A stretch of 64,000 nucleotides of DNA from positions 21,440,456 through 21,504,455 of the forward strand of contig CM119270.1 in assembly GCA_051294375.1 (NCBI GenBank), read 5' to 3'. The position numbers and the translations under genes were made by a program. The DNA is from Paraspadella gotoi. Its lineage: Eukaryota; Animalia; Chaetognatha. Numbering within the stretch: the first letter of the stretch is position 1; each line of letters opens with the position of its first letter. Shown piece by piece: positions 2,460 through 62,125 of this stretch. Under the pieces are notes generated by a model. It saw only the letters and a program-made list of their open reading frames with translations. It was not told the origin of the DNA and did not search any database.

Positions 2460-5400
2460 CTACGCCGATCCAGGCGCCCCGAGCGTAAACATGGCGGTAG
2501 AGGGCGCGGCTCCGCTCTGCGCCATTAATTTCTGGCATTCCTGCAGATGTCCTTTGTCACCGAGGCGCTCGAACGTCGACGCTGCTGACGAGAGTAAGAT
2601 GGCGCGTCGTTCGTCGCTTGCGTTTAACACGAGCGCCGGTAGATGTTTGCAAGCCTGAGGGAGAGAAAAGAAAAGAACATCGAAATTAGGGATAAAATAT
2701 TAATTAAAAAAAAAAAATAAATAATTGTCAAAAAAGTAATGTGTGGCTTATTACGGATAAATTAGTCGAGTTTTAATAACTTAAAGATGTTGATAATTGA
2801 AGGAGATTATGCAGATAAAATCATTGTTTATATTTAATATTAATTTTTTACTTTTATTAAAAAGAAAAGGTTGTTTACAAAAAACGCAACGAAAAGAAAG
2901 TCTTAACAAAATGTCTCTAAATTATTATTTGATATCATCGAGTAATTTATAATATTAATTCTACCATGAGATAGCAAAGCGCCGACGTGGATTCGTTGAT
3001 AATCGAGACGCCATCTTCCTCCGCTTCCTGGTCGCCACGCCCCCTTCGCGTCGTCATCGGTCCGAAGAACGTCGCCGTAACGCCGGCGTCATCGGCGCCG
3101 CCGCCTCTGCAGCGACCCCGAAGCAGCAGGGCCTCCGTGCGGAGCGGCGAGGCGCCGCACATGAGGCGGTAGGCGGCTTCGTGGAGGAGGAGTTTGGGGA
3201 GGGCGGCGGAGCGGACGAGGGGGAAGGTGGAGATTTGGCGGAGGAAGCTGGGAGGGGGGGGAGATGGAAGAGAAGTAAAAATACTGTTAAATAAATACTA
3301 ATTTCTGTTTAATCAATACTAAGTCAAAATTTTTATAACGTAAATCCAGTTTATTGAATCCTAAATTTAGTTGAAAATAACCTAAATCGTGTTAAATAAA
3401 TCCTAATTCAAGTTTTATTAAATACCAAATCAAAAATAATACACACTAAATACAATTTGTTGAATCCTAAATTCAATTAATATAAATTAAATTTAGTCAA
3501 ATAAATCTTAAATCAAGTTAAACAAATCCCAAGTTCAGTTTAACAAATCCCGGATCCAGTTTAAAAATTCCTGAATCTAGTTTAACAAATCCTGAAACCA
3601 GTTAATACTGACCCCAATTCCTGTTGATAAACTCCAATGTCGTCGACTTCGAAATCTGAACCAGATTCCATTCCGTCTTCCCACAAGTTGGTCCTTTAAT
3701 CAAATTAATTTAATAAATATTAAATATGTAACATATTTTGTTTGTTGGTCGTTGATTAATTCGCTTCTCGGCTTTGTGTTCACCTCGCTTCACACTTCCT
3801 TTACTCACCTTGCAGTCAGAAGCCAATCAGCGGCCATCAACTTTACTCACCTTGCAGTCAGAACCCAATCAGCGGCCATCAACTGCAGAATCTCCACCAT
3901 GTTTCTTTCCTCTTCCTCATCATCTTTGGACCCGGATGCAAATTTGTCGTGGGACCGGATGTTCAGCGAAGAGCGGAGTCGAGATCCGGCGTCGTTGCAG
4001 GCGGCGATGACGGCGTCGGTTCGTCTGAGAATATTGTCATTTGAAAATAATAAAGAAAGAGAAAATGATAAAAAAAAGAAAAAATGAATAGAAAGAAAAA
4101 AAATAGATGAAGAGATAAAGAAAGAGAAATAGTGAGAGATAGAGAAAGAGAAATGGAGCGAAAGAAAAAGAAAGAAAAAAAGAAAGAATAAAAGAAATAA
4201 AGAAAGAAAGAAAGTAAGAAAAAAACAAAACAAAACAAAGGAAGGAAGGAAAGAAAAAAAGAGAGATAATGAGAGGGCAAATCCGGATTCCGGCGGATTC
4301 TACCAGAATCACGGATCCGATTCTATTTTCGGATCTGATTCCATCTGCGATGAGATGAAGAAATTTCTCTTTCAAAAGAGAAACGGAGCGGAAAAAATAG
4401 AGAAAGAAAGAGAGAAATAAAAGAAAAAGAAATAAAAAGAAAGAAAGAAAAATAGAGAAAGAGAAAGGGGGAGAAAAAAAAATTAAAGAATAAAAATTAA
4501 AGGAATAAAAAAAATAAATAAAAAAAAAAGAAAAGACGACTCCTCACCCATTCCTTCCTTCGGCCTTCAACTTCAAGGACAGGAAGTGTGCCCTGAAGGC
4601 GTGGAAAAGGGCGTGAGGGAGCGGATCGTCCGAATCCGCGAGATACTTTGGAAAGTTAAGAATCGCGGGGACGAAGGGTGAAGCATCTTCTTCGTTGCCG
4701 ACGGACAAATTGACGGAGGCCGCGATCAGAGAAGACCACCATCTGGGGGAGAAGGAAAATGTAATGTCAGTAATGAAACAATTTACAGTTTACAATGCGT
4801 CATATAACAATTTTGTTTTGAAAAAGAAACGGAGATTGTTTTTTTTGTTTGATACAACATTAAGCGATTAGTGAAAACGTATTGTAAGATATAGTAAGAG
4901 AGAGAGAGAGATAGAGACAGAGAATTAGAAAGAGAGAGACAAATGATGACCTGGCCAACTCGTCTCCTTGATCGCTCGACGTCAACTGCAGATCGTTGAA
5001 TGGCAAACGCGACATCTGAATCTTCGACATCTCCAGCACCAACTGCACCTTGGAGACGACTTCCGCCAGCACCCCCAACGCCTCGTCGCCGGCCGCGCCC
5101 ATCGCGCGTCGTCCGGCGCCACGAGAGGGCGTCACCAGTGCCCGAAGGCAGGATCGCAGCAGCGCCCGTTTGTAGTCGCGGGCGACGAAGCTGAGAGGAT
5201 TGGCGGCACTGGAAGCCGCGGAAAAAAGGGGCGCCGTTCGGTGACCGGCGCCGGCGACGCCGTCTGAGGTGGAACAATGGGTTGCGCTCCAGGCGCCGCC
5301 GAGGAGGAATCTGGTAGTGGGGGGGAGGAAATATTTGATATACACTCATGTGCAAAAAAAAAACGCCACTTAATAACTTTTAATTCCAGATGCTCCATAA

Positions 5401-8400
5401 CAATTTTTATAAAAATTATGTAAATAATTTTTTTTAAAAAATGTATCAATGTGTAAAAATTGTATAAAAATCGGTCAAGCGGTTCAAGAGATACAGTGTG
5501 TCCCAATCGTACTGTCTCTTTAGAAAAGCTTACTGCTCCTATACCAGATCAAAAAAACTTGAATTCATTATAATGACTATGTGCACAAGTATGGAACATT
5601 TTATAGGATTTATTGATATCAATACTTATTTTATACAAATTAAAATTTAAATAATTTTTATCTATTTAAAATATTTTTATAATAATATCCTTATGAAATA
5701 ATACATTTTCAAAATAACCTTTTTTTAAATTTTTATTCATAAAAAGTTAGATCGAAAATATAAAATATGTTATTAAAAATTGTAATCTCTTCAGCATCAA
5801 AAATAGAAAAAAAGGTAAAAATTCTCCACTTTTTTATGCTCTATAATAGAAACTATTATATGATGAAACGTTTTAGTCATTTTTCGCATATTTAACCTAA
5901 AAATATCATGATACATATTTTATATTTTACAAAAGTTTTTCCGTTTTTTCCGGCGAATCCGAAACTATTCTTAAAATTAAAAAAAATATGATTTTGAAAT
6001 TTTATGATTTTATAAATTTATTACTTTAAGGAAACGAATAATTTAATTGCAACAACAACAATTTTTATTGTTAGACGAACATGTTTCGGCTCACAGTTTG
6101 AGCCTTCATCAGCGTCTAACAATATAAATTGTTGTTGTTGCAATTAAATTATTCGTCTCCTTAAACCAAAACACAACAAAAAAGAAAGGATTTACACACA
6201 AATTTATTACTATAAAGAAAATTCCATTAATGAAACTGCTATGCAAAATTCCATTTGAAAAAGGGCTTAATTATTTTATATTACATATACAAAGGCAGCG
6301 TCGCCGAATCTTTTCATCACTCCACCCTAATGAGCGTCCTAATCAAGCCACCTGTGTCCTTCCCTCGTGCAGAGCAACTGATGCAGGTGCGGTGTGAGTG
6401 GACTCCGCGCTCGGTTGGCGAAACGTCGAGCTTTTGACAGAAGGTAGCGACCGAGGGAGGAAAACCAGCGAGGAGTCAAAGCCTGATCGAGACAGAGAGA
6501 GAGAGATGGAGAGGGATATTCAGTGAGAAATATACAGAAAGATAATACTGTAAGATCTCCATTCCCTCAGTTGCCTTTCCACTTTCAATCTTACAGTACC
6601 GATTACAAGGTGTCTAAAATCAATTTATTCTATCTAGGCAAGATGGCTAAATTTTTGTTTAAATGGATGACTTTGTACAATTGATTGTATTAATTTAATA
6701 CATTTTTACCCATGTGACATGACATAACATTGTATATTTTTTACCTTGACCCTCACTGCCGCCAACAAGTAAATTTCCACCATCACTTCAGTGTCCATCG
6801 CGTGACTCGCGGCTTCGCCCATGTTGACGGCGGAGAGGGCGAGATTGAGCGCCGCCATCTTGGATCGCGAGGGGGCGTGACCGGTTAGTTGGAGCTGATG
6901 GAGTTGGTGATAAGCGTAGGCGCCATCTCTGGGGGAACGAAGAGAGAATGGAAATCAGTAAAATGATCATTTATATTCCAGTATTATCACTTCCAACCCC
7001 AATCACTTCTATCATTTATATTACAGTTTTATCACTTCTAACCTAATCATTTCTATCATTTATATTCTAGTATTATCACTTCCCACCCAATCACTTCTAT
7101 CATTTATATTCTAGTATTATCACTTCCAATCCAACCACTTCTATCATTTATATTCCAGTATTATCACTTTCAACCCAATCACTTCCATCTATTCCAGTAT
7201 TATCACTTCAAACCCAATCACTTCTATCACTCCCAAAAATCACCTGAAGCAACTCCTGGCATCTGGATCGCGCAGGTGCGTCCTTCCCGTCAGCCACCTG
7301 CCGACGTAGACGCGATGCAGCAGTTGGCGGAAGGCCTGCCACAGCAGAGACAGGAAAAGATCTAGGCTGGAGACGGGCAGCGGACGCCCCAGCGAGGAGA
7401 GGCAGCCCGACAGCTGAGCCCAGGCTTCCGTGTATCGACCTTCGGACCAATGAGCGTCCGCTTGTTTTCTGTTTTGTTTTTTTTTTAAATCGCGGGGAGA
7501 AAGAAATACTTAATTGCGATATTCAATAATTTATTCTATTCAGTGCCAAAATGCCATTTAGCCCTGCTCATTAGGTATTTCAAAAAACAAAACAGGACTA
7601 CTATCAATTAAGTATTTAGAAGGCAGGACTAATTGAATAAACTATGGCGGCCCTTACCATTAAGACTCATTCCTTACCCGCTCGCCCCCCCTCACTGAGA
7701 TCTCCCTCACCTGTGCCTCCAGTATTGAACCTTCGACTCCGATTTCGCGTTGGTGATTGGTTCTCCGTAAACAAGCAGCTTGGTCAGACACAGCACCACC
7801 ACCACAGTGTTGAAGGCCCACAACAGGAAGCGTTCGTTAAAGCCCCAAATGGTGCCGCTGTTGTCGCCGTTGCTGCTGCCGCCGCTGCGGCTTTCTCCCG
7901 CTAACCACAGCATCATCCTTCCTCCAGCGTGAAGATTCCCGTAGTCGTTGGCGTCGACGCCGGAGGTGGACTGTAATGAGGGGGGATGTGGAAAAAATGG
8001 AGGGGAAGTGGAAAAGTTGAAAAGGAAATGGAAAATGAAAATGGAGTCATCAAAATGGAAAATGGCCAAATGAAAAAGGAAAATAAAAAAAAATGAAAAA
8101 GGAATAAATGGAGGGAATGAGAAAAAGAAAAATAAAAAGAGAGAAATTAAAAATAGAAAAATCATCTTTCTTTCTCTTTCTTTCTCACCCCAGCGCCTCC
8201 ATTCTTCGCCAGAGACAAGAAACTCCCGAAAGGATTAAAAGCGATGACGGCGAACATGAAGATACAGAGGGCGACACGTGATCGATCCGGCATTCCGGCC
8301 GGATTCCTCGTCGGCAAGTTGTTGTTGTTGTTATGATGGAAAGCGAGGTGTGATTTGGCGGCGCCGAGAGTCTCAACTCCGTCTTCGTTGCCAGGAGACG

Positions 8401-11016
8401 AGGGAGCAGAGCTTGAGGAAGTGGGGCTGCTCGGCTGAGAGTCGTCAGAGGAAATGACATGGCAGCTGAAGAGTCAAATATATTAAATAAAAATAGATAA
8501 ACTTAATATTTCAAAATATTATTACTTACTTCACACTCGTTTCGGCTTAAGTTAGTAAATATATCCTTAACAGAGACAAACATTTTACTCACAAATTCGA
8601 CTTATTAAAAATAGACTCTTACTTCCCATCAACTAGTGCCACCAATCCCCGCTCTCCACTAGCCACACCTATCTCTCCACTACCCCCCTCTCTCCTCTAC
8701 CCCCCTCTTTCCTCTACCCCTCTCTCTCCACTACCCCCCTCTCTCCTCTACCCCCTCTCTCTCCACCCACCCACCCACTCACCTACGACGACTCTCCATG
8801 AGGTCCAACACTCCGTCATCCTCCACTACGGTGTGAATCTTTCCGAAAAGATGCGCGATGCCGTTCTCGTTGACGACCTGTTTGTAGGCGTGGTTCTCGG
8901 CTCGAAGTTTTCCGTTCTCTCGTTGCAGATGACGAATGTAGTCGACGGCCTTGCGGAGGACGGCCGACTTGTTGGTCTTGGCTTCGTCGACGGCGACGAG
9001 GTTCTTCAGTTCCACGATTTTGTCGTTGATGGAGCATCTGATGGATAGAGAGATGAGTTTTGATGGAGAAATTGATGAGGAAAGATGAACGATTAATTGG
9101 ACCAATCAATTTTCATCGAAAGTCAATGTCAATAAAAAATTAGAATCTGACAAAAAAAAATTACATAATAACTGACATAAATTGACGCAACATGACTTAA
9201 TTGACATAAAACAATTTTCGAGAGCGAGGTACATGACATTGAGGTATCCACCTCAAGTCGGGAGAAATTTCGTCAGTTTATTGAATCAATGAATAATTAG
9301 TTGCGCAGGGATTACTCGAGGAGCAAATCAATAAGTCGGTCGGTACATCTCACGTTAAAAATACTCATAACTTGGGTAATACTTAATTTAGTTTATACTT
9401 TTTGTTCGTCCACAGTACCATATAAAACCTTTAATGTGCATATCCGTGAATGATTCTTGTGCATATCACGTGACCACACAGAACTACGATCAGGTGATTA
9501 CAAAATAAATGAGGCATATTTCATATAATATTTGGTTATAGTTAAAACATATATTGGTTGTACCAATTTCATAATAATGTATTCATGTAATTATGTAATT
9601 ATGATCTCTCAAAAATACACATGAAAATAAAGTCATTGCGGCGAAACACACTGAAAGAACCAAACATGAGCAGTAATCTTTCCATTTCAATATCAATTGA
9701 GGTAGGAGTAACGAATACGTACAAATTCCAAAAAAGACAACAACGACAAGGACAACTACCTGTATCTCTTTTCGATGGCGTTGTGAGAATATCTCTTCCC
9801 TCCTTTTCCTTTCGACTGAAGTCTCTCGATCGCCACTTTTTCTCCGCCGTCGACGACAACGCCGCAGGGCGCCGCCGCGGAGCTGGGCGAGGCGGCCTGC
9901 AGCTGCGCGGCCAACGTGGGGGCGCTGGCCACGATGGGGGAGAGGGGCAGGCAGGAGGGCGGCGACGACGACGACGAAGACGACGACGAAGACGGCGAGG
10001 CTGCGGCGGCGACCGCTGCGACGGCGGACGGAGACGGCGTCACCAGGATCGGATGCATCGTCGCGACTCGCTGCGGAGACGAGTGAGCGGCGCGAACGAC
10101 TTGCTCTTGAGTCAGAATGCGTTGCGGCAGAGTCTGCAGCGCGGGTTGCGGCAGGAATTGTTGCTGCAGGGGAGCGACGTTTTGCTGCGGAGTTGAGGAA
10201 AATTGCGACGACGACGACGACACTGTCAGTAATTGTTGGATCCGGCGATTCGAAGCGACGGGGGATTGGGTCGGTAAAGGTGCCGACGCGACGCCTGATT
10301 GGGTCTGCAAAGGATTGGACATCGGCGCCTCTTGATTCAGCTGTGCCTGTGAATTCAGCTGTGCCTGTGGATTCAGCAGTGCCTGTGGATTCAGCTGTGC
10401 CTGTGGATTCAGCTGTGCCTGTGGATTCAGCTGCGCCTGATTATTCAGCTGGGTCTGTGGATTCAGCTGTGGCACTGCGGTCAGCAAGTGCTTGAGAAGG
10501 TTCTGGCTCTGCTGATATTCGCGCTGCTGCCGGTCCTGCTGATCCTGGATTTGCTTTAAAAGATTTTGCAGATTTTCCATTTGGTTGGAGGGAATTGGAG
10601 GTTGAGACGGAGGAGGAGCGGCTGAGGGGGAGATTAAGTTTATTAAGTTAATGAAGAGAAAGTAATTATTGTTATGTGTTAGTGACAGAACCGTTCAATA
10701 TAAGCAGTCCCTGAGCTTCGGATCAGGCTGTAACACCATGTTACAGGCGGTTTAAGCGCCCCGTCCCTCTTAACTGCTAGGCGACCACCGGGCTAGAACC
10801 CCGGACCATTGGGTTGGGAGGAAAATGACTTGCCTCCGGCACCAATGGCCGCTGATGAACGGTTAGTGGATTTTAGTCCAACATATTAATTAATTTTATT
10901 AAGAATTAATCTAAATTAGACTTTATTATGATTTAATTAACCATGAAGGCTTTATGAGGCTGGACCAACAATCCAATTGTACACCAAGTTCATAAGTTGA
11001 TGGTCCCATTCTCCCT

Positions 11017-16393: not shown

Positions 16394-16497
16394 TCTCAGC
16401 ATACCTTACTTTACCTTACCTTACTTTACTTACTCAGCATACCTTACTTTACCTTACCTTAATATACCATACCTTACTTTACTTACTCAGCATACTT
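16394..16497. repeat. Short tandem repeat (ctcagcataccttactttaccttac)
   Basis: Three imperfect copies just before the N-gap at 16532. Confidence 0.8.
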
Positions 16498-16556
16498 GAC
16501 TTTTTCTCATCCCTTTTCTCTTTCTCTCTTTNNNNNNNNNNNNNNNNNNNNNNNNN

Positions 16557-19500
16557 CGAGCACACGGCAAGTGTTCGTACAGTAAAAGGCAGAATTTAGT
16601 CTCCTCTGGCCTAAGCATCTATTCATTGTGAAAAGAGAGATGTAGAGTCATTGACCATATTTAGAATACAGAAGTTGAGATAGAAATTTGTATTTGAGTA
16701 TAATTTTCATACGTATAATATTAAACCTATTTTCTCCCTTTTTTGCATGGTCTTGCCACGATGGCAATCGCCCGACTACGGGCCGCTCAGAATGAAGCAG
16801 ATGGAATCGGTCCAGACAGTGCCGAACAGCTCGAATGTCTCCGGCACACATTTCAGGCCTTTTCAACAGGGCCGTTGAGACGGAACGTCAGCGGATCGTA
16901 CGTCTGCAACAGTATTGAGAGAGGCGCTGCGAAATTAAGAGGCAAGAGGCGATGCTTCTCGCGGCGAGAACATAGGCTTGAGAAATACGCATGTGTTATC
17001 CACGAGGAATTGATCGGGTAAGAGACGCTTTGCGCGAAAATCCAAAAATTTCCGCCGCATTTGGCGGTTTCGAACGATGATACTATTATTGCTGGATCCT
17101 GCCTCCGGCCCTAGCTCTCGGGCTGGATCCCCGTATCTCCTCCCCCCCGACCCTACAATGCCGGTCGTAGGGAGAGGAAGGAAGCAGGTGGACGCTCGAC
17201 GATGACCGTGGGAGGGCGGCGAACGACGTCGACGGATGATCAGGTTCCGATTGCCGTCGCTTGAGGCCCGGTACGGCACCTCCCCTATCCAGACTGCCTT
17301 CATGACTCCTCCCACGTCCGATCTAATTGAAGCGGTCGCCGCGACGCGGGACCATATACGAGCGCTTTTGCGCCGGTCCCTGCCCATGAACCCAACTTCC
17401 GGGGCGAACGACCGCACCGATGGTGAGAACGATGGCTACTAGTGCGACGGCGACCGATTCTGGTCACTCCAACATAACACCTCGCACAAACCGACCACTT
17501 CTACCTCCGTCCAGCTTTGCTGACGAGCAGCAACGCGTTGCTTGAAGAGGCAGTGCAGAGGGCAGTTAACGATAAAACTAGAGCCGGCACGCACCGAAGA
17601 AGAATTCTAGAGAGAGAAAATGATGATGTTGCAGGAGGAAAAATGATCGATTGCGACCAAGCTGCCGAGAGGCAGTCAGCTCGAACGACGTGCTTCGCAG
17701 CCTGCCAGGAAACTGTCAGCTGATCGATTAGCGGAGAGACACGTTTACGACGAGTTCCGAACGTTCACATGCGCCGGCGGTCATCTCTGCGGACGGCGCC
17801 GAACCTTTCCCTGTGTGCCGGCGCCCTATCTCGATTTCCGCTGAGGTTGCTGCATGCGAACGCCGCGTTCTCGGCCGAGAGGTACTGCGTCGAAACTAGC
17901 AACGGGTTTGAGCGCTTTGCCTGCGGAGGGAGCCGGACCTTCAGCTGATAACAGCCCATCGGCGGCGAATCTGACGACTTTGACGAGAGATTATCTGCGA
18001 TAGAGAAATCGTCGCTCAACAACAAGTCGCAGTCATGAGATTCGAACGAGAGCAGTTGGAGACGTCGAAAGGGAGAATCTTCAGAGGAACTTCGAGGCCA
18101 CGGTGATTGAGAATGGTTACGATGATTTCTGGGTTCGCCCAGGCGTGAGAACGCACCCCCACGGATACAAACGCCGCCTTCGCCACCCCGGGCACCGCTC
18201 CCTCGGACTCCTTCTCATCAGCCCCGCGCTTCGCCTCTCCACGATCCTTACCTCAAAGAAACAATTCTCAGAGAGATCCAGCGATCGACGCACAACAAGC
18301 GCCAAATAGCTCAACTTTCAGAACAATGCGACAGTTACAGGAGAGTGTGAGCGCCTTTCAGCACACGAGAAACGGTGGGGGCGGCTTCCGGGAGGCGGCC
18401 CCGCCTCCTGAGGCTCCCCCACGCCGGAGAAACGATCGATTACAACAGTATTTACACTCCCAATCGATAGAGTCGACGATCCGCATGCTCAAAGACTTAC
18501 GCCCTGAAGAAATGTTTAGAAACGAAGGTGCGAAAAAACAAAGTAGTCTTCGAAATTCACATTGAGACAATGGGAGGCGGCGATGACTCAACCTGTGTTC
18601 ACCGCCCAAATGCGTCATCAGGAACTACGCCACTGGTTCGGTGGTCTTGCGCGGGTTGAAACTCCAAAAGTATTTTCATCGGACTGATTATTCGGCGGCG
18701 TAGATGAAGCCGTCGCAATGCTTCATCAGGAATTTGGACGACCCGACGCCTCGCCTCACGAAATGCTAAAAGATTGTTTAGCCGGTGGTAAGGCAACGGA
18801 AGCGACGAGATCGATGAGACGATTACGCATCTAGAGAATATCGCCGCATCGCGGAGGCAAAGGGCCGAATCGCGCGATTTGAACCGGACACGGTTATCTC
18901 AGAGATTCTCGACGCAAAGTTTCCTCAATGGAAAGACAAATTGCAGAGGAAAATTCGCAATCGGGTCTTTAGAAATGGACGAAAACTTACGCTTTACGAA
19001 TTTATTGAATTTTTGAAAATTCACCTTGTTGCGGTGAAATCGGTCTATGGCAAAAGGAAAAAAGATAGCGACGACGGGCTGCGGTGGCGGCGGTTGCGGC
19101 AAACGGCTGGCACGCTGCCCCGTCGACAAACGTGGGGGCATCGAGGATCAGCAAAGGGAAACGAGTGCCACAGACTCGTTCGATTCGTCTGACGCAGCCG
19201 ATTCCCGCCCAACCGGAGTTGCAAAAGAAAAAGAAAAAGAAGCGAAGAAAGACGAGCATAACTGAAGCGAAGCCCACGCTCCTCTCCCAGAAGCCGATTG
19301 TGCTTACATAAAAGCCCAATGGCCGACTTATCCGGCCATTCCAGCCGGTGCAGCCGCCGATTCAACAGGCGGCGGCTACACCTGCTCCCCAGATCCAGAT
19401 GGTGACGAATACGCAGGAGTCCGATGTATACCTCGACGCCGACTCGCCCATCAACTCCGCATTGCTACTTTTGTGGACAAGACCATATGATCTGGGAGTG

Positions 19501-22131
19501 TACAGGCTATCAGGCCACTCGGCGTCCAGGCGAGAGCCGACTTAGCGGCAGGCCGACGATTATGTTTTAAATGTTTAACTCCTAACCATTTAGCAATTAG
19601 ATGTAGATCTAGTGTACCATGTAATCAGTGCAGGGGAAATCATCATCCCATGCTTGCACGGCGCGGCGCCGGTGCCCCGACAGATGCCGGTTAATCAGGT
19701 GGCACAATATCAGCCACAACTGGTCTATGTTCAAACTCCTGCTCCCGCCCATGCCTACACCCACCTTTTTTCAATCCACTCCCTCCTCCTATGCTGTTTT
19801 TTCTCCTTCCCAGCCCCTTCAGGACCCTGGGACGGCGAACGCTGCGGCGACGCGCAGGGAGGACTGGCTGATTCAGATCAAACGAGACCAACGACGACGG
19901 TTCCCGTGGCTCCGGCAGCAGCAGCGACCACCAGCAGCGATGCCCACTCCGCAAGCCGGGAACAATCAAACAGTTGACTAGCAGTTGCGTCCGCTCCTGG
20001 CCGAGGCGACCTTTCGTCCTTCGTGCCAGTCGTCGTCGAGATGAACGGACGCAAACGCACGACTTATGCAATGATGATAGCGGCTGTAATCGCGCTGCGT
20101 ATGAAAGAAAACATTGCCAACGATCTAAGTATAACTTGCAATGATGTAAAAATGAGAATCGAACTTTAGATAGTGATGTTATTGTAGACAAGAAAGTTGC
20201 TGATTTTAATATTGAACCACTTAATGGAACTTTTTCTCTTTCTATTAGGAAAGCGATTGTGGGACATTTGCTTACATCGAGGACGATCTCCCCCGTGCGA
20301 TGCAGATGTGGGTCGACAAGCCTCATCTCAAGGGGGTAACGTTCCCCAACCTCCCTGACAAGGAGGTTGGCGTGCTCCTCCCGGCAAACTACGCCTACAC
20401 TTGGATTGATGGAGAGGTTCGACGAGGTTCGCGAGACCAGCCGTAGCCATCAATACAATGTTCGGCTGGACTTTGATCGGACCCAGAGATGGGAAATGCG
20501 GCGATGAGTGGATTGCGCACGCATGACCGCCGAGTTTGTTGAGATTTACCAATTGTATATAAATATATCGTTGACTTACTCGACTTTCGTTTAGTACAGT
20601 CGATGCAAAAGATAGTGAAAGATTATCGGTTTGCGACTTCCGTTAAAACGAAAAATAGTGAAATGTTGCAAGTCTCAAACAACATGCGCAACAGCTTTGT
20701 CGACAACTCTGGCGCCAACCGACGACAAATCCTTTCTTTGGTCACCGAAACCCTTGCCTCAGCTCCTTCCTTCCCCTCGATGCCGGAGATCATTCCGGCG
20801 GGGGATAACCATTTTCAGCAAAGATGAGAACCAACCCACGATCTCGAGGGAGACGAGGCGCCGAAGTCGCGCCCCCGCCGACTTACGGCGGGCCAGACGC
20901 GGCTTGGCGCTCGTCAGAAAGAACATTGAAGCGATTCTGTCGCGACATCGCAGCCAAAAACCGGAAATTATCCATGGACGCTATCACATTATAGACTCGT
21001 TTTTAAAGTTTTATCCTTTCTCGCTTTTATCTATTAGCTTGTCGTTACCATCACTTTTGGTCTTTGTCAGATCACACAAACGTTCGATTTTACCATTTTT
21101 TTTTATTTGCTCAACTGATCGTTCTGTTAAGAAATTCGACGCGCACGCTCAAAAGAAAATTTTATTTCGACGATCTCGTGACATGGTTAAATTTCATTGT
21201 GTAATTCATGCGAAAAAAAGAATAATTTATTTACTTTGATATTGTGACATTCAAACGTTAGAGAATTCAATCACATAAAATTAAAAGAAAAGCGGTTTTC
21301 TGACAGGCCATAAATTGACAATAATGAAAAATATTTTCTTCCTTTTCCCTTTCTTATTTTGTTTTCATTTATTTCGACACTTTATTTATTTTTCTTCTTC
21401 CCTTGATCTTATTCCTCTTCTTTCCATCTATCTTGATCCTTTCTCTTCTTCTTTCCTGATCTTTTCTCTTCCTCTTAGGCCATGGACTTTGCACTGCCCT
21501 TCCAGAATCAGAGTGGTTTTCGTTGGAGTTTTTCCACGCTCTGATGGAGAAGCGCTGGAGGTGGGGGTGTAAGATATGTACCCCCTTTTCCCCCATTTAT
21601 TTTGTTTACCTTTGTTATTCACCGTTTCTGCCGATAGATGTCTTTTTCCTCTTTCTTTAAGGAGATTACACTCCTCTTTCCTTTCTTACCAGATATTCTA
21701 GCCTTAGACACTTAGGACTTTTCCGCCCGTCACCAAACTGCCTTTTACGAGGGCTTTAGACCTTCACGTCACGTCAAGTCACCCTTTTGTACCGCTTCAC
21801 AGACAGAGTCATTGTGCCATAGAGCCACTGCCTGAGGACCCACATTCGAGGACTTGTGGACGCGTTCGGTTGGTTCAGACTTTCACCCGTCATAGACTCG
21901 TGACGACTTGTAGGTCCCCACCCTCGACCACGCTTGGTGACGACAAACCTCGCCGATTTAACCCATCCCGGCGAGCCGACGTTTCTGGCGCAGCGCAACG
22001 GCGCCAGACGCGACCACGCCCTCTTTCGGAGCGTCAGCGGGGGACGTGGAGGACGACGGATCCTCCGTAGCGGCCGCGACGGCGGAAGAAAGCAGAGGCG
22101 GCTACACGAGCACACGGCAAGTGTTCGTACA
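16557..22131 (+). mobile_element. BEL/Pao LTR retrotransposon, frameshifted and apparently lacking RT/RNaseH/integrase
   Basis: The end of the 5' LTR (cgagcacacggcaagtgttcgtaca, 16557-16581; rest in the N-gap) is identical to the end of the 3' LTR (22107-22131). Internal Gag-like segments (AMLHQEFGRP, LTLYEFIEFL), the BEL/Pao triple zinc knuckle CYFCGQDHMIWEC / CFKCLTPNHLAIRC / CNQCRGNHHPML (19463-19660), and a protease C-terminal part (PHLKGVTFPNLPDKEVGVLL...AINTMFGWTLIGP, ~20310-20485). PPT ggaggtggggg precedes the 3' LTR. Confidence 0.9.
21568..22131 (+). repeat. 3' LTR of the BEL/Pao element (564 bp, TGTAAG...CGTACA)
   Basis: Starts with TGT right after the purine tract and ends with ACA. 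Terminal 6-bp inverted repeat matches 5/6. The last 25 bp are identical to 16557-16581. Confidence 0.85.
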
Positions 22132-22337
22132 GTTATAGTGTAGTATAGTTAAATAAAAAGTATTAAACAAAGTTTCCAGATGACCAGTAATAAACTTTAA
22201 AACAGAGTTGAGAGAACGAGAAAACTAAGGTGAACATCACAGCCTGTGAGACACAAGTGGATGGAGACTCGAATTGTGAAAGGTGAAACTTTCGGAACGA
22301 AATTTTATGTCCTCATCAAACTAGACACGTTTAATTT

Positions 22338-45600: not shown

Positions 45601-48600
45601 TATTATTAATTATTATTAAATATATTATCATAATTCCCCTCAAATAAATTGACAATTTAAACAAAATGTTACTTCATAGAACATATTTTTTGTTTGCTTA
45701 AATCTCTCTCTGTTACGACTATCGAGTTTATAAAATATTTGAGGAGTATCTTTGCTCGGCCGGCAGAGCCGGACCATCGCCGGAACGAATGCCACGAGCC
45801 AACTCGTCGTCTCAATCTCATTTGCATATTGAAGCGTTGACAAGAAAGTTGCAAAAGCCAAAGTTTACAACTATAAAACACCCTAAAATTCTATTTTATG
45901 GAAGGCAATATAAAAATATTTATTTAAAATGTTTACAAATGATATTTATTTTATTTTTTGACATAACATAATGTATATTTTCATTCAGTGTTAACTATAT
46001 TTTCCTTACCAGGTTTCAAAAAATACTTCTCCCAGCTCTTCAAGGATCAAATAATGGATCAGGAATATTTGACCAACCGAGAACGCCTCAAGGATGCGTG
46101 CGAAAATCTCGAGCGCCTCATGGCCGAGATGGAAGAAATATATAGACAAGTGAGAAACTAAAACAAAATTAAATATATAATTTGTTTATAATATAAAAAA
46201 TAATATATTGTAAACAATGATTAATGAATTGTTGAAAAAAAATAGGTTTGAATTATAAATGAGGAGAGACCTAGTTTACAAATGAATTTCAAATTCACTA
46301 TTGGCTATAAAGTAAAATTATGGAAAATTATGTAATTGATATTTAGTTAATGAAACATGAAAAATTCTTAAATTGTTGATTTCTATTTTTAAAGCTAAAG
46401 TTTAGAGTAAACAAAGTGTTTTTGAATTTATGACAACGATTTATTTTAATAGACGGACATGTCTCGACTCTTTGGGTTCGAGTCTTCATCAGCATTTATT
46501 AAAATTAATCGCTATCACAAATTCAAAAGCACTTTGTTTTCTCTAAATATTAAATAACAACGAAAAGAAAGGATTATCACATGTAACAAAGCTAAAGTTA
46601 AATTAGATAATTTAAAAGAAAAAAATATTTCTGTGGTTTCTTTTTGCCTCCTCTCTCTCCNNNNNNNNNNNNNNNNNNNNNNNNNNNNNNNNNNNNNNNN
46701 NNNNNNNNNNNNNNNNNNNNNNNNNNNNNNNNNNNNNNNNNNNNNNNNNNNNNNNNNNNNNNNNNNNNNNNNNNNNNNNNNNNNNNNNNNNNNNNNNNNN
46801 NNNNNNNNNNNNNNNNNNNNNNNNNNNNNNNNNNNNNNNNNNNNNNNNNNNNNNNNNNNNNNNNNNNNNNNNNNNNNNNNNNNNNNNNNNNNNNNNNNNN
46901 NNNNNNNNNNNNNNNNNNNNNNNNNNNNNNNNNNNNNNNNNNNNNNNNNNNNNNNNNNNNNNNNNNNNNNNNNNNNNNNNNNNNNNNNNNNNNNNNNNNN
47001 NNNNNNNNNNNNNNNNNNNNNNNNNNNNNNNNNNNNNNNNNNNNNNNNNNNNNNNNNNNNNNNNNNNNNNNNNNNNNNNNNNNNNNNNNNNNNNNNNNNN
47101 NNNNNNNNNNNNNNNNNNNNNNNNNNNNNNNNNNNNNNNNNNNNNNNNNNNNNNNNNNNNNNNNNNNNNNNNNNNNNNNNNNNNNNNNNNNNNNNNNNNN
47201 NNNNNNNNNNNNNNNNNNNNNNNNNNNNNNNNNNNNNNNNNNNNNNNNNNNNNNNNNNNNNNNNNNNNNNNNNNNNNNNNNNNNNNNNNNNNNNNNNNNN
47301 NNNNNNNNNNNNNNNNNNNNNNNNNNNNNNNNNNNNNNNNNNNNNNNNNNNNNNNNNNNNNNNNNNNNNNNNNNNNNNNNNNNNNNNNNNNNNNNNNNNN
47401 NNNNNNNNNNNNNNNNNNNNNNNNNNNNNNNNNNNNNNNNNNNNNNNNNNNNNNNNNNNNNNNNNNNNNNCTCTCTCTCTCTCTCGCTCTCTCCAGCCGG
47501 AAGAAAAACTGACCAAAGACGAGATCGAACTGGAGCGCGTCTTCCAAGAGTCCAAGGAATCATTTGAGAGAATTGAGGAAGACATCGATTCTCTCGTAGA
47601 CAGATTGCGGCATATCCCTCAGAGGGTAAGTCAGGCTCTTTGCGGCAGATTGCGGCATATTCCTCAGAGGTTAAGTTGGGCTCTTTACAGCAGATTGCAG
47701 CATATCCCGCCGAGGGTAGGTTGGGCTTTTTACGACAGATTGTGGCTTATCCCTCAGAGGGTAGGTTGGGCTCTTTGCAACAGATTGCGGCATATCCCTC
47801 AGAGGGTAGGTTGGGCTCTTTGTGACAGTTTGAGGCATATCCCTCAGAGGGTAAGTCGGGATCATTGTGGAGGATTGCGGCAAATCCTTCAGAGAATAGG
47901 TTGGGCTCTTTACGGCAGATTGCGGCACATCCCTCAGAGAATAGGTTGGGCTCTTTACGGCAGATTGTGGCTTATCCCTGAGAAGGTAGGTGGGGTACTT
48001 TACAGCAGATTGCAGCATATTCCTCAGAGGGTAGGTTGGGCTCTTTATGGTAGATAGTGGGACATTCCTCAGAGGGTAGGTGGGAACCTTTGCTGCAGAT
48101 TGCAACATATTCCTCAGAGGGTAGGTTGGGTTTTTTTCAGCACATTGTAGCATATTCCTCAGAGGGTATGTTGGGCTCTCTGCGCAAATTGTAGCATATC
48201 CTTTAAAGAGTAGGTTAAGCTCTTTACAGCAGATTGCCACAAATTCTTCAGAGGGTAAGTGAGGTAAGTGAGCATATCCCTCAGAGGGTAGGTTGTGCTC
48301 TTAGTGTTAGATTGTGGCACATCCCTCTGAGGGTAGGTGGGAATCTTTGCGGCAGATTGCAGCATATCCCTTAACAAAAAAATAAATTAAAAAAAAATAA
48401 ATAAATAAAACTTTATTTTGAGCTGAACTTCTTTCCCAGGAAATGGAATATGCAATGAACGTAGCGCGTCTATTCTTGAACCAAACGAAAACAAAGTCCG
48501 ACTTGAGCGAAATCATCATTGGAGACGATATGAGGAACGCGTTAGAATCGCTCAAGGTATTAATATTAGTATTATTATTATTATTATTAGACTTTGTATT

Positions 48601-61680: not shown

Positions 61681-61974
61681 GAGAGAAGAAGGAATAGATT
61701 TGGATTAAGGAGACGAATTTGAATTCGAATTACGAAACAAAAAAAATGGGAACCAATTTGATTATTGGAAGAAAAAAGTTGAAAGACGAAGATGACGACA
61801 AAACGGTCGATGATTATGATAATGATTTTGAAGAACACGATGATGACGATGATGATAATAATGACATCGTAACTTGTATTCTTGATGTAAACGACACATT
61901 TAAAGATTATAATTATAAAGTTAATCATCATGTTAAGAACTCTGATTACTCAAAGTAGAGAACAATACGTCATA

Positions 61975-62105
61975 ACAATAAATAATGTATCATCTACAGT
62001 AAATGATATATCATCAAGAATAAATGATATATCATCTACAATAAATGATATATCATAAACAATAAATGATATATCATCTACAGTAAATGATATATCATCT
62101 ACAGT
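61975..62105. repeat. ~21-bp tandem repeat (aaatgatatatcatctacagt)
   Basis: About 6 copies, each containing the palindrome atgatatatcat. Confidence 0.85.
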
Positions 62106-62125
62106 TTCGTCTCTTCATTTTTTCT

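Follow-up and report, generated by a model that had tools for sequence, protein, structure and literature searches.

How does a retrotransposon that carries no binding site for a tRNA primer start its reverse transcription? The question is raised by an element related to the BEL/Pao superfamily in a 64,000-nt stretch of DNA from the chaetognath Paraspadella gotoi (assembly GCA_051294375.1, contig CM119270.1, positions 21,440,456 to 21,504,455 of the forward strand), which was analysed at its full length and is called the window below; positions are counted from its first letter, and all features of the element lie on the plus strand. At the primer-binding-site position of this element the 11-mer GTAAAAGGCAG (16582-16592) directly abuts the end of the 5' long terminal repeat (LTR), ...TTCGTACA (16581), and its exact reverse complement was found at 21738-21748, which is position 171 of the 564-bp 3' LTR. 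The ungapped match ends at 11 nt. A TGG, as expected of a tRNA site, was not present at a distance of 0-5 nt from the LTR end in the window. Both observations had been made in a preliminary description of this DNA and were confirmed. The element thus carries, within its LTR, a segment that can pair with its primer site, and self-priming of the kind known from the Tf1 retrotransposon is the likely reading for the window element.

The probability of such a pairing was estimated by dinucleotide shuffles of the LTR. The 11-mer was matched by 8 of 20,000 shuffled sequences at a spacer of 0 nt and by 21 of 20,000 when spacers of 0-5 nt were allowed, i.e. the chance is 4e-4 to 1e-3, and the value of approx. 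1e-4 calculated earlier was too low. None of 90 other leader positions reached 11 nt. The predicted duplex of the window (-15.1 kcal/mol) was the best in the LTR, and in the ranking of the LTR duplexes it had -17.9 kcal/mol compared with -12.5 kcal/mol for the next best. In co-folding, the probability of the duplex was 1.00, 1.00 and 0.90 when the RNA started 0, 3 and 10 nt from the 11-mer, and 0.00 at 30 and 60 nt, a behaviour which, as far as the folding model goes, hints that the transcript begins no more than about 10 nt from the 11-mer. A weak initiator-like motif is present 3 nt before the complement (21733-21739) and is one of six such matches in the LTR. Introns which could split or lengthen the 11-mer of the window were also considered; none with GT-AG signals was found, and a 13-nt hit with the CT-AC control signals was treated as chance.

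Related loci were fetched from metagenome contigs with the polyprotein profile described below, and the best 80 of 477 confirmed loci were used. The 53 loci with at least 900 nt of upstream DNA comprised 22 family representatives, 16 further copies, two loci (L008 and L027) resolved by scan only and 13 that could not be resolved. A tree of the reverse transcriptase (RT)-RNase H region, built from 57 loci and 9 proteins after 23 loci had been left out for short coverage, splits into two clades, in which the complement has a spliced form (support 0.944) or a contiguous form (support 0.979). The LTR ends of nine families were fixed by the divergence of the two LTR copies, before the complement was searched for, and those of 13 families by a terminal repeat together with a motif. 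For seven loci of the second clade, the selected LTR end was compared with 60-90 candidate ends: it gave the single best complement in six of them and shared the first place in the seventh. In L021 and L070 this end was also the unique best terminal repeat. A complement scan after any CA or TA proved to be unspecific (best off-target match 8-22 nt) and was not used as proof.

In none of the 22 relative families did a TGG lie 0-5 nt from the LTR end. A complement of 11-15 nt was found in the own LTR of 18 of the 22 readable families, namely in eight of the nine divergence-fixed families, three of four further members of the clade to which these belong and seven of nine in the second clade, where the remaining two had 9 and 10 nt. 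In the null tests, the match of these 18 families was reached at 0-1 of 90 leader positions and by 0-6 of 200 shuffled sequences; for L001 (9 nt) it was reached by 14 of 200. When sites and LTRs were swapped, the mean match was 11.1 nt for a site with its own LTR and 6.2 nt for a site with other LTRs; cross-matches of at least 11 nt amounted to 32 of 506 and all occurred between site-sharing families. The window primer site matched the LTRs of other families over at most 9 nt. Since seven families have one site in common, only about 14 sites can be counted as independent. At the sequence level, the pairing is conserved in the relatives in a family-specific manner. The preliminary description had suggested asking whether the post-LTR site co-varies with an LTR complement in related BEL/Pao elements, and this is what was observed. 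Its broader claim, a BEL/Pao lineage in which the primer site is matched by the element's own LTR and not by the end of a tRNA, is supported by the co-variation across families; however, the abutting geometry which it emphasized is not the rule, as a spacer of 2-5 nt was present in 20 of 20 relatives with a complement of at least 9 nt.

The two clades reach the pairing in different ways. In the spliced clade, which the preliminary description had missed, a complement is obtained only when a GT[A/G]AG..[C/T]AG junction is joined, with introns of 77-372 nt; the contiguous match is 6-8 nt, and antisense or non-splice control signals gave 0-9 nt. LTR introns whose junction yields an 11-14 nt complement were found in L028, L034, L035, L040, L041, L044, L049, L050, L056, L058 and L072. 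Because the complement is formed only across the intron junction, the pairing would have to act on processed RNA. The contiguous clade consists of nine families, whose complement of 9-15 nt lies 204-289 nt from the LTR end and whose sites start with GT[A/C]A, like that of the window; two of them (L006 and L018) start with GTAAAA exactly as the window does. In seven of the nine contiguous relatives the first base of the complement coincides with a pyrimidine-purine step or precedes it by one base (such steps have a background frequency of 0.22-0.27 at each position; the comparison is post hoc, and the offset in the window is -3), which may be a hint of the transcript start.

Some further features were noticed in individual relatives. 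L008 and L027 look like additional cases of a junction-built complement, as judged by scan only. In L027 (1066-1150), the leader contains several repeats of a word resembling the primer site, shortly after the likely LTR end. L049 contains an exact 1,353-bp duplication of the LTR end, leader and gag start (1-1353 and 6722-8074), either a tandem element or an assembly artefact.

Several points weigh against self-priming, and the first group of them concerns the window itself. The spacer is 0 nt in the window versus 2-5 nt in the 20 relatives mentioned, the base after the complement is G versus C in 19 of 20 relatives, the complement lies 393 nt from the LTR end versus 76-289 nt in the relatives, and no AATAAA is present in the window. 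These departures may have arisen in the lineage or as errors of the assembly. In one family contig the 45 letters before 16594 were left unaligned, and the junction of the window copy may differ from that of the family. Clade-specific Gag-protease profiles gave 26.6, 22.9 and 23.8 bits on the window, which was not decisive for assigning its Gag-protease to one clade of relatives or the other. The second group concerns the relatives. Four of the 22 families fell short, L052 with 4 nt in the 3' LTR and 10 nt in the 5' LTR, L061 with 6 nt, L001 with 9 nt and L026 with 10 nt, and the copy L079 carries an uncompensated change. The 13 LTR ends resting on terminal repeat and motif were partly located via the complement, and 13 of the 53 loci with upstream DNA were unresolved. 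L007, L014, L016 and L022, which fall outside both clades, had no convincing complement, and their LTR ends were not found. The family comparison included no tRNA-primed BEL/Pao family as a negative control. The predicted duplex was obtained in two of five folded contiguous relatives, partially in one and not in the other two. Finally, the ICTV, the international committee for virus taxonomy, describes an 18-nt site for tRNA-Arg or tRNA-Gly in BEL/Pao (PMC8742986).

In individual copies (L052, L061 and L079) the pairing is disrupted by a single G-to-A change, which affects the CG either in the shared site or in its complement; these changes look like CpG decay after insertion.

The departures of the window raise the question whether the match in this copy could be a product of chance, or of a noisy assembly next to a gap, the real primer site of the family being different. 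The junction is only 25 nt away from the gap, many indels separate the window copy from public family contigs (40 gaps in one 726-nt contig), and the unaligned contig end is close to 16594. In addition, many windows were read, so that events with a probability of about 1e-3 do arise. However, noise tends to destroy an exact 11-bp match and not to make one, the site start GTAAAA is accompanied by the complement end TTTTAC just as in L006 and L018, and the 11-mer forms the best duplex of the LTR. We consider this explanation quite improbable.

A different possibility is that the pairing is functional in the RNA and the primer is not cut in cis: an LTR-derived RNA (a solo-LTR or 3'-LTR transcript, or a small RNA) could act in trans, or the duplex could serve as a packaging or translation switch while something else primes. 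The first exon of the spliced clade contributes only 4-8 nt of the complement, which is awkward for a cap-proximal exon, the cis duplex was not predicted in two of the five contiguous relatives and is lost when the 5' end lies at least 30 nt upstream, and the 2-5 nt spacer of the relatives is unlike a flush primer site. On the other hand, the paired site is always found at most 5 nt away from the end of the LTR, the place at which a primer has to bind, it has the length of a primer (9-15 nt) and a conserved ...AC end, and no tRNA site is present. Such a role in trans or in RNA structure therefore seems rather unlikely to us.

The third alternative is that a fragment of a host tRNA primes, with the LTR complement being incidental or a captured copy. 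Half-molecule tRNA primers are known in some Ty1/copia lineages (PMC6317226; for this and the other papers cited by PMC number, except PMC8742986, statements refer to the accessible parts of the text). However, about 14 distinct sites each track their own LTR, therefore one tRNA cannot explain the pairing, and an intron interrupts the complement in one of the clades. A search of the element against Rfam (16400-22300) gave no match, and no tRNA genes were found in the window. The LTR 11-mer ends in CTTTTAC, which we take to be loosely similar to the anticodon loop of Lys(UUU). Priming by a tRNA fragment is regarded as highly improbable.

Self-priming is the reading which we prefer, and its course can be outlined by analogy with Tf1, from which the start site, the cut, the priming and the autonomous partner are all borrowed. 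Transcription would start at the LTR 11-mer or a few bases upstream, and the RNA would fold back so that the 11-mer pairs with the primer site after U5 (-15.1 kcal/mol). RNase H supplied in trans by an autonomous partner would then cleave behind the ...AC end, and the 3' end released in this way would be elongated by RT into U5-R, giving minus-strand DNA. In the relatives the spacer of 2-5 nt would have to be removed before integration, and in the one related clade the primer would first be assembled by splicing. For the window element we think that this sequence of start, folding, cut and priming is probably correct. More tentatively, we lean slightly towards a wider model, in which self-priming would be the normal mode of a large BEL/Pao branch of aquatic animals, with an origin independent of Tf1. 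Its primer would either be ready-made at the 5' end, as in the window element and the look-alike clade, or be assembled by host splicing of an LTR intron, and non-autonomous families such as that of the window would retain a primer of their own while relying on the enzymes of others.

The assignment to BEL/Pao was examined with the protein remnants. The zinc-knuckle query retrieved 86 proteins, and DUF1759 or Peptidase_A17 was present in 18 of the 25 scanned. The full-length relatives of the best protein are BEL/Pao polyproteins, the named ones coming from aquatic animals, among them molluscs, amphioxus and fishes. The knuckle hits to DUF1759/Peptidase_A17 polyproteins support the view that the element is a BEL/Pao derivative, in line with the affinity proposed earlier. 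A BEL/Pao polyprotein profile built from 28 sequences was run over the whole window, and its matches were colinear, the zinc knuckles being followed by weak protease pieces. With the same profile no RT, RNase H or integrase was found anywhere in the window. To speak of a BEL/Pao retrotransposon, as was done before, is supported by the Gag and protease remnants; the lack of the three enzymes had been overlooked. The window element is non-autonomous and many-copy, and it lies in a noisy assembly. Parts of the stretch are carried by 9 of 11 listed sequencing runs, and contigs from four runs cover all 30 bins.

The features of the element are as follows. An assembly gap of 25 N (16532-16556) conceals nearly the whole 5' LTR, of which the last 25 nt (16557-16581) are visible and identical to 22107-22131. 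Since only these 25 nt can be seen, the 5' copy of the complement is deduced from the 3' LTR, and the target-site duplication is unreadable. Just before the gap, at 16395-16500, there are short degenerate tandem repeats which are absent from the 3' LTR sequence. A broken Gag-like region, with approximate limits set by eye, extends over 18149-19190; it gave a weak protein match at 18583-18786 (E 4e-5 to 7e-4), and its pieces had no Pfam hit. It is followed by a triple zinc-knuckle nucleocapsid region of the BEL/Pao type in two frames (19430-19660; profile independent E-value (iE) 4.9e-12) and by a broken protease-like region colinear with the profile (19984-20502), where the individual hits are weak (iE 0.12-0.84; tblastn E 0.003-0.008). 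The place of RT, RNase H and integrase is occupied by a segment for which no homology was found (20503-21556) and which is present in high-depth family contigs. Its depth in these contigs is similar to that of gag, and one contig spans the protease region into the segment (20371-20788). Because of this depth and of the protease-spanning contig, the enzyme-less structure looks like that of a many-copy family and not like a one-off deletion. A 206-aa frame in the segment (20619-21239) had no match.

A polypurine tract, identified from the sequence (21557-21567), precedes the 3' LTR (21568-22131), which has the ends TGTA..TACA and carries the candidate self-primer at 21738-21748. The LTR end is backed independently by the summed contig depth, which in run X2 stands at 17,014 and drops to 896 in the bin beyond 22125. 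A longer LTR, up to an AATAAA-like motif beyond 22131, was considered and rejected, as the depth falls and the similarity stops. Other searches were negative within their scope: Pfam on 21 reading-frame pieces gave nothing above cut-off, ESM Atlas gave no usable hit with the protease piece and the post-protease frame, a word-based homolog search with the knuckle piece yielded 0 of 195 candidates, and no viral contig was confirmed against the polyprotein alignment.

Elsewhere in the window other repeats were noticed. An AT-rich 45-bp tandem array next to an 810-N gap (46500-48400) is open in several frames, and an 18-bp tandem repeat (10302-10499) lies within long open frames on both strands and is possibly a coding repeat. 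Minisatellites are present at 3287-3603 (21 bp), 6998-7217 (44 bp) and 61954-62121 (21 bp).

In the current description of the family, BEL/Pao elements are primed by host tRNA and their replication is poorly understood. No report of self-priming in BEL/Pao was found in the open literature; subscription papers, supplements and repeat-database notes were outside this scope, and a prior mention is possible. A term search in the accessible parts of the Sinbad paper (PMC554778) and of a metazoan BEL/Pao survey (PMC3118150) found no primer-binding site (PBS), tRNA or priming, and PBS and tRNA were likewise not found in those of PMC6238403; PMC5443660 and PMC8220671, to the same extent, mention self-priming only for Tf1 or the PBS only generically. 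If the proposal is true, a tRNA-free route would exist in a third LTR superfamily, and self-priming would have arisen or persisted in gypsy, copia and BEL/Pao. This would bear on the proposal that hairpin priming is possibly ancestral to tRNA priming (PMC3601003), and it would explain why PBS finders would fail on such elements. The most surprising part is the splice-built primer of the relatives, which would place reverse transcription under the control of splicing. Since the window copy is defective and noisy, it should be regarded as a pointer and not as the best model.

When the window is compared with the Belpaoviridae (Semotivirus) as described by the ICTV, the TG..CA LTRs of 0.2-1.2 kb, the polypurine tract and the multi-knuckle Gag followed by protease are found in both. 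Unlike these tRNA-primed elements with their 18-nt site, the window has no TGG and, in this copy, no RT, RNase H or integrase (PMC8742986). Self-priming is reported for the Tf1/sushi group, Tcn1 and TAR (PMC6317226), and a list of fungal cases is available (PMC6934838). In the plant elements Tcn1 (gypsy) and TAR/Houba/Osr-1 (copia) it was predicted from complementarity alone, which is the same level of evidence as here; these belong to other superfamilies, and in its accessible parts the survey does not cover BEL/Pao (PMC6317226). The closest parallel is offered by the Tf1/sushi group of Ty3/gypsy, i.e. Tf1 and Tf2 of Schizosaccharomyces pombe and Tj1 of S. japonicus, where, as in the window, there is no tRNA site and about 11 nt after the 5' LTR pair with the LTR. 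In Tf1, the transcript's initial 11 bases pair with the primer site, and the RNase H cut falls between bases 11 and 12 (PMC7175516, PMC4600332); the window complement has the same length of 11 nt and the same position (PMC7175516). In contrast to Tf1, the window element has a Gag of another superfamily, BEL/Pao, is non-autonomous and has a putative start site and cleavage; its relatives have a spacer of 2-5 nt, and one clade of them builds the complement across an intron, a feature not described for Tf1 in the accessible parts of the sources. The nearest proteins of the window element are BEL/Pao polyproteins, which speaks against an ancestry in the Tf1/sushi chromoviruses. By the logic of its sequence, the window element would work like Tf1 in its self-priming, without being a member of the Tf1/sushi group.

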